Shown here piece by piece: positions 1 through 16,054 of a stretch of 18,483 nucleotides of DNA. The position numbers were made by a program, and so were the translations under genes. The stretch covers positions 1 through 18,483 of the forward strand of contig JBDRLP010000026.1 of the NCBI GenBank assembly GCA_043812975.1, given 5' to 3'. This stretch comes from Candidatus Iainarchaeum sp. (GTDB taxonomy: Archaea; Iainarchaeota; Iainarchaeia; Iainarchaeales; Iainarchaeaceae). Numbering within the stretch: position 1 is the stretch's first letter; each line of letters starts with the position of its first letter. The notes below the pieces were generated by a model. The model was given only the letters and a program-made list of their open reading frames with translations. It was not told the DNA's origin and did not search any database.

Positions 1-561
1 ATTAACCTGCATGTTCACAGCCTGTTTGGAATCTATTGCGATTTTCCCGCCTTGCGAATAACCATAAAGGCTGTTTATTCCAAGATCTTTGAATTTGACT
101 TCTATTTTTTGTTCTTTGCAATAATCCAAGAGTTTGTTTAAGAGGAATTTGAAGTCATCACCTTTTATTTCAATATCAATTTTGGGCAATTCTTTTCCAG
201 CAGTTTGGGAAACATCAAACACGTTCACTGGAAAAAAGTAGGTTCGGGAAACTTCTTTTTCCTTGCCGCTAGAATCTTTTTCAACAACTTTTTTGGTTGA
301 AGGAGCAAGGATTTTAATAGCTTTAGAACCAGCTTTCACATGGCGTTCGAGTTCGTTCCATTTCCTGAAACCGGCAACACGAGAAGCACTACTATTCTGA
401 ACATGAATAAGTAATTGATTGCGGTAAGAGTACCTCCAAAACTTTGCCATGGAATCCAAGTACTCTTTGAAAAAACTTGATTTGCGGACAGCATCAGTTT
501 CATCAGTCAACTGCGAAACAGATTGTTCCACCATTTTATCAAGATTAGAAAGAGGATTCAT
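1..561 (-). CDS. ArdC-like ssDNA-binding (ArdcN/DUF1738-type) protein, 3'-truncated by the window edge; not in ORF track
   Basis: Manual translation from ATG at 561 gives MNPLSNLDKMVEQ...FWRYSYRNQLLIHVQ...SRVAGFRKWNELERHVKAGSKAIKILAP...FFPVNVFDVSQT, open to base 1. YS..N.LLI..Q, AGF..W....R.V.KG.K.I.I.AP and VFDVSQT are hallmark ArdC N-terminal motifs. ATGA overlap with the upstream gene. Confidence 0.88.
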   Translation of the reverse strand, partial: MNPLSNLDKMVEQSVSQLTDETDAVRKSSFFKEYLDSMAKFWRYSYRNQLLIHVQNSSASRVAGFRKWNELERHVKAGSKAIKILAPSTKKVVEKDSSGKEKEVSRTYFFPVNVFDVSQTAGKELPKIDIEIKGDDFKFLLNKLLDYCKEQKIEVKFKDLGINSLYGYSQGGKIAIDSKQAVNMQVN

Positions 562-758
562 TTAGAACCCTCCACTTTAATCTTTTGTATTTCAAAATCA
601 AGCATCTTATTCAACGAATTAGTTAACGATTGCTTGACTTGAAGCAAGTCTTCTCCCTCATTCAGCTCGGCAGTAGCGGAAAGACCAAAGCCTTTGGATT
701 CGTAATTCCCCATATTCAATTTCTGGGAAACACTAACATTGATTTCTTTGATTTTCAT
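558..758 (-). CDS. Small hypothetical protein (66 aa) with NxGNYES motif, typical of viral/mobile-element proteins
   Basis: ORF track. GAGGTGA SD upstream. ATGA overlaps with both neighbours. Confidence 0.8.
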   Translation of the reverse strand: MKIKEINVSVSQKLNMGNYESKGFGLSATAELNEGEDLLQVKQSLTNSLNKMLDFEIQKIKVEGSK

Positions 759-1009
759 GCTTTCACCTCGTTTAAAATATACTTGTTTTGCGTGTTGAGC
801 TCTTTCTGTTCAATAGGATCTAGCTCTTTTTGCGTTAACTCGTATTTACCGCACGAAGAACACTCATAAGTCGTGCTAATTGCAGGAGTCTCAGAACACA
901 ACCTGATACTGCTCCCTCTTTTCTCCAGCATAACCAGAGTCTCAGTAGCCCTGAAAAAATGATCACCACTACAATGAGGACAAACAACTTTACGATTACG
1001 AAAAATCAT
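755..1009 (-). CDS. Zinc-ribbon protein (84 aa)
   Basis: CPHC...CSSCG motif. GAGGGA upstream. ATGA overlaps at both ends. Confidence 0.8.
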   Translation of the reverse strand: MIFRNRKVVCPHCSGDHFFRATETLVMLEKRGSSIRLCSETPAISTTYECSSCGKYELTQKELDPIEQKELNTQNKYILNEVKA

Positions 1010-1110
1010 TGTGAATCCCTCTTTTTGAAAAAAGCCATATCACGAAAGGTACGACTTTCTCCGAAAGGATTACCCCTTTGCGAAACTTTAGTTTGATAAT
1101 GAAAACTCAT
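1006..1110 (-). CDS. 34-aa micro-ORF, first gene of the ArdC operon
   Basis: MSFHYQTKVSQRGNPFGESRTFRDMAFFKKRDSQ*. Strong SD GGAGGTGG 7 nt upstream. The stop overlaps the next ATG (ATGA). Confidence 0.65.
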   Translation of the reverse strand: MSFHYQTKVSQRGNPFGESRTFRDMAFFKKRDSQ

Positions 1111-1117
1111 TTTTGAA

Positions 1118-1274
1118 CCACCTCCAAGCGATAAAAGAGTTTTTTTCATGAAGACGACTCGCAGGGTTTGGAGATATTATAGCTTTAGGCGACAGCCGAC
1201 CCCGAAGGGGGAAAGCTATAAATCGAGAAACACTGAGGCGTAATGAAAAAAACGAAAAAAGCTTGGGGGTACGG
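1118..1274 (+). promoter_or_regulatory. Long imperfect inverted repeat (hairpin) built from two BRE/TATA+SD units
   Basis: Paired blocks are ACCTCCAAGC(1120-1129)/GCTTGGGGGT(1261-1270), GTTTTTTTCAT(1139-1149)/ATGAAAAAAAC(1243-1253), ACGACTC/GAGGCGT, CAGGGTTT/AAACACTG, GAT/ATC and TTATAGCTTT/AAAGCTATAA. The apical loop contains CCCCGAAGGGG. The structure is seen directly; function is inferred. Confidence 0.75.
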
Positions 1275-1351
1275 AAAGGAGTTTAAAACTTTTCTAACTC
1301 AAATCAATGTATAAAATATGCTTTTCAAAAAAACAAAAAAGGAGTGATTGA

Positions 1352-1798
1352 ATGAATAAAAAACAAGTAGGACTAGGCCTAATTTTCGCCTCGCTTCTCA
1401 TAATAGGGGCTTCAACCTATGGCGGAACAAACGGCAAACCATTCGAAGAAATATGGAATGCGATAGATAATCTCCAAAACCAAATTAACAATATTGAACT
1501 GACTACAGGACCTATCGGACCTCCGGGAGAACAAGGATCTCAAGGTGAACAAGGACCAACTGGCTCTGAAGGACCACAGGGACCTCCCGGAATAACTGAA
1601 ACAAGAATAGCCCAATCAATGGCAAACGGACCAGCAACCCTGAGTTGCAACCCCGATGAAATCGCTATCAGCGGTTCATTCGACAATACCTTCGCATATG
1701 AGAGAGGAGCATTCTACCCGATTAATGAACGAACTTGGAACTGGAATGGTCAATATCAAGCAAGGTTATATCTTATCTGTGCCAAAATAACAGAATAG
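1352..1798 (+). CDS. Secreted/membrane collagen-like protein
   Basis: N-terminal hydrophobic signal, short coiled coil, 9 Gly-X-Y triplets (GPIGPPGEQGSQGEQGPTGSEGPQGPPG) and a C-terminal domain with two Cys. GGAGTGA SD. Confidence 0.85.
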   Translation: MNKKQVGLGLIFASLLIIGASTYGGTNGKPFEEIWNAIDNLQNQINNIELTTGPIGPPGEQGSQGEQGPTGSEGPQGPPGITETRIAQSMANGPATLSCNPDEIAISGSFDNTFAYERGAFYPINERTWNWNGQYQARLYLICAKITE

Positions 1799-1894
1799 TA
1801 AAACCAAGCTAGGGAGCCAATAAGTTTGTCCGATTATGCGATTCACTAGATATAAAAAATGCGTGACCCCCGATAAGCTACCTGCAAACAAGAG

Positions 1895-1960
1895 GAAGGG
1901 TTTAAGCCGAAAAAGACCCAAGACGAAATGAAAAAAAACGAGGAAGCTTGGAGGTGGAAA
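1895..1960 (+). repeat. Diverged direct copy of the hairpin right arm (1211-1277)
   Basis: GAAGGGTTTAAGCCGAAAAAGAC...AATGAAAAAAAACGAGGAAGCTTGGAGGTGGAAA versus GAAAGCTATAAATCGAGAAACAC...AATGAAAAAAACGAAAAAAGCTTGGGGGTACGGAAA. Confidence 0.75.
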
Positions 1961-1997
1961 TAATTTTAATTGTTTTATGGGTAATCTTAGTGATTAA

Positions 1998-2519
1998 ATG
2001 ATTAATTTACTTGAGAAAAATAATAAAAAACATGCAAAACGCAAATTTAAACAAGAATTAAAACGTTTGATAAAACTTAGAAATAATAGCAAAGATGACA
2101 AAGAATTTCAAAAATACCAAATTAACATAAACGAACTTTCACAACAACAGTATGGAGGAATACAAACAGTTCAAAAGAATTTTACTAAATGCCCAATTTG
2201 TGGAAAACCCCTATTTACGACCCCTGATTCTAAGTTTCAATGTAAAAACAGAAATTGTAGATTATATCTTGAAGAAATAAGTAGATGGAAGGCTCAATTT
2301 GGGTATGAGGCCAATCAAAAAACAACCAATCAATATAGAAAAAACTGTATAGATACAATCATTACTGCCAAAGAAGGACATAAGTTTTTACATTGGCTAA
2401 CAAAAGAAAGAAAACCTTATTATGATCAAAGACCAGAATTTTTCACTTGGGCAACCAAGAATACAGATTATGATATTCAATATACTGCTAAAAAATTAGA
2501 AACATTAATACACAAATAA
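1998..2519 (+). CDS. Basic hypothetical protein with a central zinc ribbon
   Basis: ORF track, 173 aa. CPICG...CKNRNC motif. Lys-rich N-terminus and visibly AT-rich DNA. Confidence 0.75.
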   Translation: MINLLEKNNKKHAKRKFKQELKRLIKLRNNSKDDKEFQKYQININELSQQQYGGIQTVQKNFTKCPICGKPLFTTPDSKFQCKNRNCRLYLEEISRWKAQFGYEANQKTTNQYRKNCIDTIITAKEGHKFLHWLTKERKPYYDQRPEFFTWATKNTDYDIQYTAKKLETLIHK

Positions 2520-5363: not shown

Positions 5364-6623
5364 TCACATCGCCTTCTCAGGGTCTTGTCTTGTTCTTTCC
5401 AATTTGTCTACCATTTTTTTCATGAATTTGTTGAATGTTTTCATGTCCACTCCTTCTTTTTCCAAGTGTTCAGAGTTGTCTATTGCGGCTTGTGTGAAAT
5501 CAAGTGCCTTGAGTTTGGCATCCTGTTGAATCTCTAAAGCTGTTTTTGTTGTTATAGCACCACCGCATTGGTGGCATAATCTGTTGTGTGCGGGATTTAT
5601 TGTCGTGCATCTTGGGCATGCTATTTGTGTAAAACGTGTTTCTTTATGTTCTGGTGTTTTTATTCCATGCATTTCGAGAATTGTAGAGTCCATGCTTTCG
5701 CCTGAAAGATGAATATATCTTGAAGGCATTTTGCTCCCGTATACCCAACCCATGTATTGATCTAACTGTGATTCCTTGAGTTTTAATGAAAGTGCTGTGG
5801 CTCTACTGTGCCTGAATATATGTGGGTTCGTTCTTTTTTTGATGTCCGCTTTTTTGAAAAGCCCTCTAATCATTTTCTTTATGCGAGAATAACTCATTAC
5901 CTTTGGCTCGGACTTGCTTATGTCCCCCCAAAGTATTACCCATAGCGGTGCTTCCCTATTGTCTTTGAAAGGATGTTCTTCCAGCCACCTTGAAAGGCTG
6001 GTGGTTGAGGTCAGCAGTGGTATTCTTCTTTGCCCAGTCTTACCGTTAACTATTATCGAAGTCAAGTACTTTGAGAAAGTCACGTTTTTGATTTGTAATG
6101 TTAAAAGTTCTCCTATTCTACAACCACTTTCGTAGAGTGTTGAAATGAATGCTTTGTCCCTTGTTGTTCTGGCTGTTTCAATAAGTTTTATTACTTCTTC
6201 TTCCGTGAGAATATCTTCGGGCAATATTTTGTTTCTTGGTTCCTTAACCTTGAGCCATTTGATACAAGCTGGGTATTCATCCTCTGTATTATGCATCCAC
6301 TTATAGAATTTTTTTAGTACTACTTTCTGGTCATATTTTGTCCAAGCCGCATGACTCTTGTTTGCTTCTATTTTTCGGACTAGCTCTACTAAGTCAGTTT
6401 TATCACATTTCCTGAATGGCTTGTTTTTTAACCTTGCCAGACCTCTTAAAACATACACTTGTTTGTTGAGCCTTATTGTTTTTATGCCTAATGCGCCCAT
6501 TTCGTTTACAAAATTAGTTATGTCTTCAATGTCCTTCTTGTTAAACTCGGTGCTTTTATTGAGAATTCCAAGTGCTCTTTCAAAGCGCTCGGAAGAATTA
6601 TAGATGTCTATATCCAGTGTCAC
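5364..6623 (-). CDS. Tyrosine recombinase/integrase with C-terminal zinc ribbon
   Basis: Catalytic set ESGCRIGE (R), GKTG (K), HIFRHS (HxxR), MGW, RYIHL (Y). CPRC...CHQC tail. Adjacent to a tRNA. Confidence 0.95.
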   Translation of the reverse strand: MTLDIDIYNSSERFERALGILNKSTEFNKKDIEDITNFVNEMGALGIKTIRLNKQVYVLRGLARLKNKPFRKCDKTDLVELVRKIEANKSHAAWTKYDQKVVLKKFYKWMHNTEDEYPACIKWLKVKEPRNKILPEDILTEEEVIKLIETARTTRDKAFISTLYESGCRIGELLTLQIKNVTFSKYLTSIIVNGKTGQRRIPLLTSTTSLSRWLEEHPFKDNREAPLWVILWGDISKSEPKVMSYSRIKKMIRGLFKKADIKKRTNPHIFRHSRATALSLKLKESQLDQYMGWVYGSKMPSRYIHLSGESMDSTILEMHGIKTPEHKETRFTQIACPRCTTINPAHNRLCHQCGGAITTKTALEIQQDAKLKALDFTQAAIDNSEHLEKEGVDMKTFNKFMKKMVDKLERTRQDPEKAM

Positions 6624-13971: not shown

Positions 13972-14106
13972 CTATAAAGACAGGAGAAGGACTGCCGTGC
14001 CTACTAAAGTCGTTACGACTACAATTATTAGAACCAATATCAGCATTGGCAAACCATAGTCTGCTCCCATGTAGAAGTATGTCTGGTTTTTTGGTGCGTT
14101 GCTCAT
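13972..14106 (-). CDS. 44-aa single-TM micro-protein coupled to integrase 2
   Basis: MSNAPKNQTYFYMGADYGLPMLILVLIIVVVTTLVGTAVLLLSL*. GGGGTGA SD and ATGA overlap with the integrase stop. Confidence 0.65.
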   Translation of the reverse strand: MSNAPKNQTYFYMGADYGLPMLILVLIIVVVTTLVGTAVLLLSL

Positions 14107-15296
14107 TTTGTCACCCCCGCTTCAATTACGCTGAGTGTTTCCAATAGCCTGTCAGGATTGTCCTTGTATTTTTTGAGCAATTTCATTAAGGCTATTATTC
14201 CGGTGTCTTCTTTCCTTTGTTTTTCTTCTGCTTCGAATGCCGCTTCTTGTGTAAGGGGCAACCAGCACTTAGAACAATAAGAATTGTTCACGTCATTTTG
14301 TTCTTTGCATCTTGGACATTCATTTCTTTTCAGAATGTCTTCTTTCCTGTCTTCTTTTATTATTCCGTGCATCCTCAGGATTGCATTGTCAACCTGTTTG
14401 CCTGACAGGTGCACGTATTGGGCGGCCATGTCTGAGGATGGTGTCCAGCCAAAGTATTCTTTCAATTGTGCTTCGGTCAGGAACTGTGCCATGTATGTTG
14501 CCCGTGAATGCCTGAAGTTGTGAGGGTTTACCGGTTTTTTTATTCCTGCTCTTTTTGCTGTTGTTGAAATCAGTTTCATTATGTAACGGTGCCCCATTTG
14601 CTGTAGCCTGTTGAATTTAACATTAACCCAAACCGGGCATTCAAGGTCATTGTTTGTAGGGTGTTTGTTCAGCCATTCCATCAAGTCCGGTGCGGAGTTT
14701 ATCAGCCTCACTCTCCGCCTTCCTGTTTTTCCATTGACAAGAATTTTGCACCCATGCTTGTCAAAGCTAACGTGCTTTATTTTCAGTGTGCCTATTTCGC
14801 TTATTCTTGCTCCACTTTCCCATAGGACAGAGATTAATGCCTTGTCTCTTGGAGAGGAAGTGTTTTTCAATAATTTTTTGACTTCCTCTTGTGTAAGCAT
14901 TTGTTCTGGAAGTTTCTTGGATTTAGTTCTGGTGCTCTTAAACCATTTGACGCATTCAGGGTATTCGTCTTTTCCATCAAGCCACTTATGAAATACTTTT
15001 AACACTCGCTTGTAGGTGCAGATTGTTTCATGCGAAAGATCGGAACGCTTTAATCCTAATAACAGTTCCTCATAATCTTTTGTTTTAACCTTGTCGAAGT
15101 CTTTTTGTGTTTTCAAAGCAACTATTCTGAGTGTGCTTAAATGTTTTATCATTCTTGCATTGCTTAAATCCCTCATTAAATTGTAGCGGTGAAAATCCAT
15201 TATTATTTTTTTATTTCGTTTTGAAACAGCTGAGTTTTCAAGTTTGCTTATTTCTCTTTCAAGGATTCTTTCGAACCCATACAAATCGTTTTGCAT
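14103..15296 (-). CDS. Tyrosine recombinase/integrase with C-terminal zinc ribbon
   Basis: ESGARISE, GKTG, HNFRHS, FGW, QYVHL; CPRC...CSKC tail. GAGGAGG upstream. Adjacent to tRNA-Thr. Confidence 0.95.
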   Translation of the reverse strand: MQNDLYGFERILEREISKLENSAVSKRNKKIIMDFHRYNLMRDLSNARMIKHLSTLRIVALKTQKDFDKVKTKDYEELLLGLKRSDLSHETICTYKRVLKVFHKWLDGKDEYPECVKWFKSTRTKSKKLPEQMLTQEEVKKLLKNTSSPRDKALISVLWESGARISEIGTLKIKHVSFDKHGCKILVNGKTGRRRVRLINSAPDLMEWLNKHPTNNDLECPVWVNVKFNRLQQMGHRYIMKLISTTAKRAGIKKPVNPHNFRHSRATYMAQFLTEAQLKEYFGWTPSSDMAAQYVHLSGKQVDNAILRMHGIIKEDRKEDILKRNECPRCKEQNDVNNSYCSKCWLPLTQEAAFEAEEKQRKEDTGIIALMKLLKKYKDNPDRLLETLSVIEAGVTK

Positions 15297-15356: not shown

Positions 15357-15463
15357 AGCCTCCGGTGGGAGTCGAACCCACGACCCGCGGTTCATTTGCC
15401 ATTTATAGTATAAATACTATTAATAGTTACAAAACCGCTGCTCTACCACTGAGCCACGGAGGC
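15357..15463 (-). tRNA. tRNA-Thr(UGU) with a 35-nt BHB intron at 37/38 (intron 15393-15427)
   Basis: GCCTCCG TG GCTC AGTGGTA GAGC A GCGGT TT TGT A [intron] A ACCGC GGGTC GTGGG TTCGACT CCCAC CGGAGGC T. BHB: UUUG/CAAA helix, bulges UA|A and UG|A, outer helix CUAUU/AAUGG. Confidence 0.95.
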
Positions 15464-15979: not shown

Positions 15980-16054
15980 TGCTCCGAGGGGGATTCGAAC
16001 CCCCGTCGCTACCGTGAGAGGGTAGCATCCTTGACCGGGCTAGACGATCGGAGC
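15980..16054 (-). tRNA. tRNA-Glu(CUC), intronless
   Basis: GCTCCGA...CTACC CT CTC AC GGTAG CGAC GGGGG TTCGAAT CCCCC TCGGAGC A. Confidence 0.96.

Follow-up and report, generated by a model that had tools for sequence, protein, structure and literature searches.

Why should an archaeal operon ending in an ArdC-like gene be headed by a long palindrome that carries a TATA-like sequence in its stem? The question is raised by an 18,483-nt contig of Candidatus Iainarchaeum sp. (GCA_043812975.1, JBDRLP010000026.1), here called the window, which is the complete contig with nothing left of position 1; the host genome comprises 1.24 Mb in 68 contigs, has 35% G+C, and is 94.5% complete. An earlier note on this DNA had read positions 1118-1274 as a hairpin that rebuilds a promoter duplex on single-stranded DNA (ssDNA), giving early expression of a four-gene leftward operon from incoming DNA. 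We find that the hairpin belongs to a family that is widespread in one order of small-genome (DPANN-type) archaea, in which the ArdC operon is one cargo among several, and that its pairing is under selection. The earlier interpretation is partly supported overall, and a promoter working on a single-stranded template is the reading that we put forward, tentatively, below.

Pairing, strand polarity and asymmetry of the hairpin

Folded as ssDNA, the + strand of 1118-1274 reaches -34.8 kcal/mol, compared with -13.9 +/- 2.5 kcal/mol for 200 shuffled sequences (z = -8.2; 0/200 as good), and the - strand reaches -26.3 kcal/mol (z = -5.4). The full-length fold and the perfect 10-bp TATA-like stem described in the earlier note were thus recovered, and a recount of the features also bore out its basal stem over the Shine-Dalgarno (SD) sequence of the first gene and its internal loop near the start region, where pairing is interrupted past the TATA stem. 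The parts of the element, together with an unpaired relative further right, are listed here by coordinates and strand.

1118-1274, no strand assigned: whole hairpin element; the covariance model described below matches 1112-1276 with 162.2 bits
1177-1186 / 1212-1221, + strand: perfect 10-bp TATA-like stem, TTATAGCTTT / AAAGCTATAA
1118-1129 with 1261-1270, + strand: basal stem, CCACCTCCAAGC with GCTTGGGGGT, covering the first-gene SD
1139-1150 / 1243-1253, + strand: A/T-run stem; pairing is interrupted between the TATA stem and this stem
1118-1186, - strand: left arm, with the parts of a complete promoter and leader (TATA core, spacer with arm-specific extra bases, A-run start region, 5' untranslated region (UTR), SD)
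1174-1181, - strand: predicted TATA box of a leftward promoter, TATAATAT on the - strand, its promoter function suggested by sequence
1182-1186 on +, feature of the - strand: AAAG resembling a TFB recognition element (BRE), immediately upstream of the predicted TATA box
1147-1149, - strand: predicted operon transcription start, placed at a pyrimidine/purine step by its spacing of about 31-35 nt to the first base of the TATA box
1118-1125, - strand: SD of the leader mini-open reading frame (mini-ORF), which reads GGAGGTGG on this strand and forms part of the basal stem
1187-1211, + strand: apex, a three-way junction with mini-hairpins GGC-GACA-GCC (1188-1197) and CCCC-GAA-GGGG (1200-1210)
1212-1272, + strand: right arm, a shortened mirror of the left, with TATA-like core 1217-1224, A-run box 1243-1253 and SD-like GGGGG 1265-1269 without a start codon
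1893-1957, + strand: solo promoter-leader module, unpaired and spaced like a left arm; it precedes ORF 1998-2519, whose start codon is about 40 nt from the SD-like box of the module

No Rfam family matched the hairpin at gathering scores, at which the window yielded only two tRNAs, and a search of 900-2100 at E values up to 5 returned just two weak matches, both outside the hairpin. Among public sequencing runs, none of RNA was listed as containing window positions 400-2000, the listed runs being of DNA with small shares.

A covariance model (R1) built from 13 ArdC-linked copies allowed the pairing to be followed in homologues. Across 49 distinct copies, aligned by fitting to the model and hence biased towards structure, 96.9% of cells pair, versus 80.4% in shuffles and at most 63.9% with slid partners, and both partners vary in 27 of 35 pairs (260 cells), a level that 0/500 shuffles reach; this is the covariation that the earlier note had proposed to seek. 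The ArdC-linked set (n = 23) has 92.0% of cells paired versus 73.0%, with 33/35 pairs changing on both sides. Alignment A5 omits locus L003, whose reverse strand scored too, and alignment A6 omits subgroups B and C. Columns of the TATA core (five pairs) are invariant or nearly so in 49/49 copies; the core occupies the best-paired part of the stem, and the flanking stems covary. The most variable, covarying stem is placed between the TATA box and the predicted start; these spacer stems vary between loci yet stay complementary inside each locus. Since this stem lies upstream of the predicted starts of both arms, RNAs made from two arm promoters are not the species selected to pair. G.U-type pairs occupy 21 of the 1652 cells.

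Strand polarity was assessed in 45 representatives sharing <85% identity, with counts taken raw and shared ancestry ignored. The + strand, which is the template strand of the leftward operon, folds better in 45/45 under DNA parameters (mean 3.9 kcal/mol) and in 42/45 under RNA parameters (mean 7.4 kcal/mol), in agreement with the preference asserted in the earlier note. When the arms were aligned under a scoring that treats every mismatch alike, isolated mismatches read on the + strand as A.G 47, G.T 28, G.G 6 and A.A 10, versus C.T 11, A.C 5, C.C 2 and T.T 8 (by unique context, A.G 36, G.T 24, G.G 5 and A.A 8 versus C.T 8, A.C 4, C.C 2 and T.T 6). Isolated mismatches are G-containing on the + strand. 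The earlier argument from a T-G wobble is thin for the window copy, whose + strand fold has exactly one such wobble in 53 pairs, but holds across the family. Hairpin loops that start with G and end with A number 18/40 on the + strand versus 1 on the - strand (19 ArdC-linked representatives), and a change of the right-arm SD-like box to GGGGG in the window copy and loci L111, L115 and L131 gives G.T on the + strand and C.A on the mRNA strand. Strand-biased deamination was considered as a source of the G.T excess and rejected, since the bases abundant at unpaired positions of the + strand are A and G rather than T. Polarity of fold, mismatches and loops points to a selected folded species that is single-stranded and of + polarity, and both ssDNA and + sense RNA fit this description.

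The two arms differ in a consistent way. From TATA core to A-run the left arm measures 33-35 nt in 23/29 copies (median 34; 35 in the window copy) and the right arm 28-29 nt in 22/29 (median 28; 29 in the window copy), the left arm being the longer in 27/29. The left arm thus has canonical spacing, about 30 nt from TATA to the pyrimidine/purine step, and the right arm is without 5-6 nt at about -10 to -5, which leaves the template arm with a conserved 5-6 nt bulge where an archaeal promoter would melt. Bulged bases number 435 in left arms versus 56 in right arms, and a purine 3x3 loop (GGA left, GAG right) and a single A bulge beside the TATA stem are found family-wide. A start codon follows the left anti-SD by 10-14 nt in 39 of 42 family members, and the 3' end of the host 16S rRNA, on another contig, carries an anti-SD that matches the SD of the leader mini-ORF. 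On the right side (n = 45) the SD-like box is present in 44; an ATG follows it at a workable distance in 13, and 2 have an ORF of 30 aa or more behind it, in line with the earlier observation of an SD-like sequence that lacks a start codon. The right arm is also retained where the neighboring gene is co-oriented (L057, L076, L083, L019 and a second host-genome copy on contig C27). We read it as a shortened mirror kept for base pairing, not as a gene start.

Spread, cargo and genomic setting

The covariance model matches 57 of 151 sampled genomes of the order, with up to 8 copies per genome and mostly 80-140 bits. Matches were obtained in 61/151 genomes of a phylum-level sample, in which none of 11 genomes from five families outside the order sample was matched. 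ArdC-like proteins occur in 6/23 genomes of the archaeal family and in 38 archaeal-type metagenomic loci (53-100% identity); a search of genome contigs for further ArdC relatives added one archaeal locus (L019), the other 27 matches being bacterial ArdC homologues of 28-35% identity. The hairpin is thus far more widely spread than the ArdC and leading-region frame of the earlier note would have it.

The leftward operon itself was confirmed as four ATGA-coupled genes ending in ArdC. Its four - strand ORFs (1006-1110(1149), 755-1009, 558-758 and 1-561) overlap by ATGA at every junction.

1006-1110, - strand: leader mini-ORF of the 'NPFG.G.SF' type, encoding 34 aa when counted from the ATG at 1110; a Pfam family could not be assigned to it
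755-1009, - strand: zinc-ribbon-like ORF, 84 aa, ATGA-coupled, missing in the closest relative, L003
558-758, - strand: 66-aa ORF with no assigned family, ATGA-coupled, recurring in ArdC, methylase and NUMOD3 cassettes
1-561, - strand: ArdC-like gene truncated at the end of the contig, which leaves the N-terminal 187 aa

The last ORF matches ArdcN in Pfam with an E value of 1e-10 (42.3 bits, cut-off 22.6), and the remainder of the gene was not found elsewhere in the host genome. Full-length relatives are 270-288 aa long and add a Peptidase_M78 domain after ArdcN, a predicted two-domain architecture like that of ArdC anti-restriction proteins (ArdcN PF08401 plus Peptidase_M78 PF06114). The conserved protein of about 66 aa, shared by the window (558-758), L003, L102, L105, L107, L110 and L112, carries the motif KEI.V.VSQK...GN..SKGFGL.A..EL and has no Pfam match.

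Among 33 ArdC-linked loci with at least 230 nt upstream, the hairpin is clear in 22 and weak or partial in 3, and none was seen in 7. The core of the cassette is the hairpin, a leader ORF of 30-40 aa, sometimes the 66-aa ORF, and a gene for ArdC-N plus the M78 peptidase; the gene beyond the hairpin varies (Shedu SduA_C, Mrr, PLD-SNF2, Mre11/Rad50-like, HEPN, Schlafen/AlbA), and methylases, GmrSD and type I restriction-modification (R-M) genes lie near. Unlike known ArdC genes, the archaeal copies therefore sit in defense-island-like surroundings (type I R-M, Mrr, Shedu, GmrSD, methylases). Both ArdC cassettes of one genome (G013; loci L010 and L011) have complete type I R-M systems (hsdR, hsdM, hsdS) at a distance of 1-3 kb, a context in which the ArdC-like protein may act on, or be co-regulated with, resident restriction systems.

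ArdC is a minority cargo of the hairpin family. A first motif search saw the repeat on the window contig only, and the covariance model later added a second host-genome copy (G000:C27:131292-131439, locus L131 6293-6440), which precedes a leader ORF of 40 aa and the gene of a 530-aa protein. A LAGLIDADG-like motif was read by eye in this protein, for which Pfam gave only a weak DUF5104 match; the right arm of this copy faces a co-oriented gene and carries an 11-codon mini-ORF. In 29 further loci that were inspected, a leader ORF belonging to one of two recurring types comes after the left arm, and a larger gene comes next. The two leader types, with motifs 'NPFG.G.SF' and 'P..EEI...L.DRE.WIL.EF', are combined freely with cargo genes in the left flanks of L102-L131. 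A Pfam scan of 25 larger cargo proteins assigned LAGLIDADG_3 to 11, ArdC to 2, DNA methylases to 2, and PIN, NUMOD3/HTH, Lcl_C and a weak DUF match to 1 each, with no match for 6. LAGLIDADG cassettes in five longer stretches are flanked by housekeeping genes (rpiA, HisRS, fibrillarin/Nop56, GatB, GatA). ArdC can therefore not be regarded as the characteristic cargo, as the earlier note had supposed; the operon is one cargo among several and not the hairpin's reason for existing.

Several smaller observations concern the placement of the copies. In three genomes of three families (L111, L115, L117), a LAGLIDADG cassette with its hairpin adjoins a 51-55 aa zinc-ribbon gene that is followed by an ORF read by eye as elongation factor 1-beta, and this shared neighborhood suggests either site-specific insertion or an old conserved arrangement. 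L102 and L107 have a solo right-arm-type module in tandem just right of the hairpin, implying that the module duplicates on its own. A tRNA-like sequence lies at most about 40 nt from the right arm in the right flanks of L125 and L128, so that some cassettes appear to abut tRNA genes. Copies on the same contig at most about 30 kb apart have the same orientation in 6/6 pairs (G118:C14, G153:C72, G017:C2, G075:C1 713/727 kb, G012:C52, G013:C21), and three pairs 56-110 kb apart are opposed.

A candidate promoter on single-stranded template DNA and its rivals

We hypothesize that the hairpin is a promoter active on single-stranded template DNA, which on the features of the sequence we consider possible rather than probable. 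The left arm would be the working promoter and leader, with BRE/TATA, about 30 nt to a pyrimidine/purine step and an A-rich start, and beyond these a 5' UTR of 35-40 nt and an SD, followed by the start codon of the leader ORF (30-50 aa) at the head of a short operon. A single-stranded template (+) strand would fold back to rebuild the duplex BRE/TATA and the duplex downstream, and its 5-6 nt bulge at about -10 to -5 would serve as a ready-made bubble. TBP, TFB and RNA polymerase could then transcribe the operon from ssDNA, on the logic of bacterial Frpo promoters, and in duplex DNA the left arm would be an ordinary promoter. Entry, replication or repair might each be the occasion on which the template becomes single-stranded.

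Several properties favor DNA over RNA as the folded species. The best-paired stem is the one that holds the TATA/BRE core; promoter spacing is preserved on the template arm, with the other arm shortened where the promoter would melt; G.U-type pairs are few and isolated G.A is at least as frequent as G.T; and neither a promoter nor a terminator could be demonstrated for a + sense RNA. By DNA mismatch stabilities, such a frequency of G.A relative to G.T is easier to reconcile with DNA than with RNA. The favored strand is also the operon template, as a folded-template promoter requires.

In the passages of PMC11541004 that cite Masai and Arai (1997), the Frpo/ssi ssDNA promoters of bacterial conjugative plasmids drive anti-restriction, orphan methylase and toxin-antitoxin genes. 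As described there, a long imperfect hairpin from one DNA strand puts promoter elements into duplex, and the favored folded strand is the template of the downstream genes. The cargo overlaps in part (ArdC, orphan methylases and a PIN pair on the archaeal side), which speaks for a promoter of this kind. Unlike the Frpo/ssi elements of those passages, the archaeal hairpins have boxes that are BRE/TATA-like by sequence instead of -35/-10, and are mostly chromosomal before LAGLIDADG genes, with pairing that continues through the SD; they are not in a recognizable leading region, and no oriT or transfer genes were found. The Frpo/ssi logic is already known in bacteria, and the archaeal promoter type and setting differ.

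Several observations weigh against a promoter on ssDNA. First, no relaxase, VirB4 or rolling-circle Rep gene, of the kind that the earlier note expected nearby, was found in about 15 kb around two ArdC copies, nor were relaxase, VirB4 or Rep found in the 2.5-kb flanks of 20 metagenomic loci or in the window, most of the loci being short contigs on which absence is unproven; ComEC, DprA and VirB4 families were not found in the host genome at its 94.5% completeness. Second, most copies are chromosomal and head LAGLIDADG genes amid housekeeping genes, with no obvious transferred leading region. Third, the palindrome takes in the SD and, in certain subgroups, also the start codon, and such pairing is unneeded for a promoter mimic and needed for occlusion of a ribosome-binding site (RBS). 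Fourth, unpaired modules exist (window 1893-1957 and the tandem solo modules of L102 and L107), so that the module can act as a plain duplex promoter. Finally, a full-text literature search, with subscription journals outside its scope, found no archaeal ssDNA promoter; within the same scope, the literature on DPANN archaea with LAGLIDADG yielded no description of the hairpin element.

A wider proposal, which we regard as somewhat more doubtful, is that more than 130 such TBP/TFB-type hairpins with a built-in template bubble form the first family of archaeal ssDNA promoters. They would head selfish-gene cassettes (homing-endonuclease-like, ArdC, methylase, toxin-antitoxin) and fire when the template is single-stranded, at DNA entry or behind the replication fork, so coupling expression to transfer or replication. 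If the folded template is a working promoter, transcription of ssDNA extends to the archaeal, eukaryote-like TBP/TFB machinery, and an ssDNA stage (uptake, transfer or replication-coupled firing) would be implied in DPANN archaea, whose gene exchange is poorly understood. Even were the mechanism RNA-based, the hairpin would be a compact, portable control element of about 160 nt (promoter, leader, mini-ORF), reused before many selfish genes across the order, and the polarity and covariation of the family are unusually clear.

The alternative that survives best, although we judge it unlikely, is that the element encodes a structured cis-antisense RNA. In IS10, the inverted repeat that a selfish gene carries at its 5' end gives a stem-loop RNA (RNA-OUT) complementary to the translation start of the mRNA (RNA-IN). 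By this logic rightward transcription would be driven by a promoter located within the opening codons of the leader ORF, and a + sense RNA starting near the anti-SD would span the palindrome, fold, and pair with the 5' UTR, SD and start codon of the operon or otherwise interfere with them, holding the selfish operon down. The archaeal inverted repeat would likewise give a stable stem-loop RNA complementary to a translation start. The + polarity fits such an RNA equally well, given the RNA-parameter folds, and so do the G...A (GNRA-like) loops, the purine- and A-rich unpaired positions, and the location of SD and start codon under the palindrome; an A/T-rich peak 21-30 nt left of the anti-SD is where its TATA box would sit. 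However, TATA-like 5-mers in + orientation are not enriched at this peak, and the sequence in which the putative promoter would lie is protein-coding, with at least two unrelated families of leader ORF represented. A T-run terminator does not follow the right arm with any consistency (7/45 have T5 in the next 35 nt or so), and, in contrast to RNA-OUT, neither an outward promoter nor a terminator could be demonstrated. The scarcity of G.U-type pairs (21/1652) and the frequency of isolated G.A, at least that of G.T, would be unusual in a selected RNA helix, the stem of about 60 bp is far longer than that of RNA-OUT and would make a poor antisense effector, and Rfam gives no match.

Quite unlikely, in our assessment, is a plain divergent promoter that arose by inverted duplication, in which the left arm drives the selfish operon, the right arm a displaced neighbor, folding is irrelevant, and the arms are kept alike by shared factor binding or gene conversion. 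It would account for BRE/TATA-like boxes on both arms, for solo modules before genes (1893-1957; L102, L107), and for the many loci with a gene diverging from the right arm (Shedu, Mrr, PLD-SNF2, Mre11/Rad50-like, HEPN, and also the zinc-ribbon gene followed by the by-eye elongation factor 1-beta ORF); T4 homing-endonuclease genes, in the portions of PMC2988022 that treat them, also carry promoters for displaced neighbors. Shared factor binding, however, leaves the within-locus complementarity of the variable spacer stems unexplained, and gene conversion was rejected as the source of arm similarity because the arm-specific differences (the 5-6 nt gap, the GGA/GAG purine loop and the single A bulge) are conserved family-wide and so oppose homogenization. 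The strand bias of mismatches and loops is unexpected in a duplex-only element, the spacing of the right arm is non-canonical, and this arm is kept even without a diverging gene.

A translational insulator of the T4 type strikes us as improbable, and ranks below the divergent promoter. Here, - sense read-through mRNA would hold both arms, fold, and hide the SD and start codon, and transcripts from the internal left-arm promoter, lacking the right arm, would be translated. The sections of PMC2988022 on homing-endonuclease genes of T-even phages (I-TevI, segB, mobE) describe RBS-sequestering hairpins with an internal late promoter, and this design is the best architectural precedent: the promoter lies inside the hairpin, the far arm pairs the RBS of a selfish endonuclease-type gene, the location is between essential host genes, and the predicted start inside the left arm would leave the element's own transcripts without the far arm. 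LAGLIDADG-type genes are the commonest cargo, the right arm persists beside co-oriented upstream genes, and as - sense RNA the element still folds very stably (the window copy, for example, at -48.7 kcal/mol). The polarity of the T4 design, however, is opposite to that observed: archaeal folding favors the antisense (template) strand, not the mRNA strand, which folds less well in 45/45 representatives (DNA parameters) and 42/45 (RNA parameters) and carries A.C, C.T and C.C mismatches, as well as C.A from the right-arm GGGGG change in the window, L111, L115 and L131. Unlike the hairpins of those sections, moreover, the archaeal stem is about 60 bp long, includes an untranscribed promoter, and is conserved across an archaeal order.

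Least probable is a folded single-strand recombination or mobility site (integron attC or IS200/IS605-REP logic) that moves the cassette and is recognized as a one-strand hairpin: the strand-polar fold with conserved bulges, the multiple dispersed copies with variable cargo on both sides, the position beside apparently the same gene pair in three genomes and beside tRNA-like sequence in two, the two tyrosine recombinases of the window and the likeness of the apex to the core of a small hairpin repeat of the host genome would fit it. An attC site, however, is a sequence-variable imperfect palindrome 3' of a promoterless cassette, and it is recombined by an integron integrase encoded nearby. The TATA core and leader of the archaeal hairpin, in which attC core motifs were not searched for, are instead conserved in sequence and stand 5' of an operon, as far from a genuine gene start as a promoter would be; the chromosomal LAGLIDADG copies that were examined have no recombinase beside them, and a scan of the window for att sites and direct repeats found none convincing.

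Other features of the window

The second apical mini-hairpin and the GGGGGAAA that follows it (within 1188-1211) are closely similar to the core of a small GC-rich repeat, composed of two hairpins, that forms a family in the host genome and of which the copies at C57:13110, C52:412, C44:44765 and C1:6447 (all G000, the host genome) were compared with the apex. A recent insertion of this repeat was rejected as the origin of the apex, because the apex is common to ArdC-linked copies of many genomes and any insertion would be old. Directly right of the hairpin, positions 1352-1798 encode a small secreted-looking protein with a short collagen-like G-x-y run, which matches Pfam Collagen with an E value of 7.7e-5, under the cut-off. 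The two tRNA genes of the window are at 15357-15463 (107 nt, intron-type, missed by ARAGORN) and 15980-16054, the first of which is in keeping with the archaeal origin of the DNA. The two tyrosine recombinases (5364-6623 and 14103-15296) each have a C-terminal zinc-ribbon-like tail, and the second adjoins the intron-containing tRNA gene; the pair, one of them beside a tRNA, suggests that the window contains one or two integrated elements, although it yielded no att repeats.

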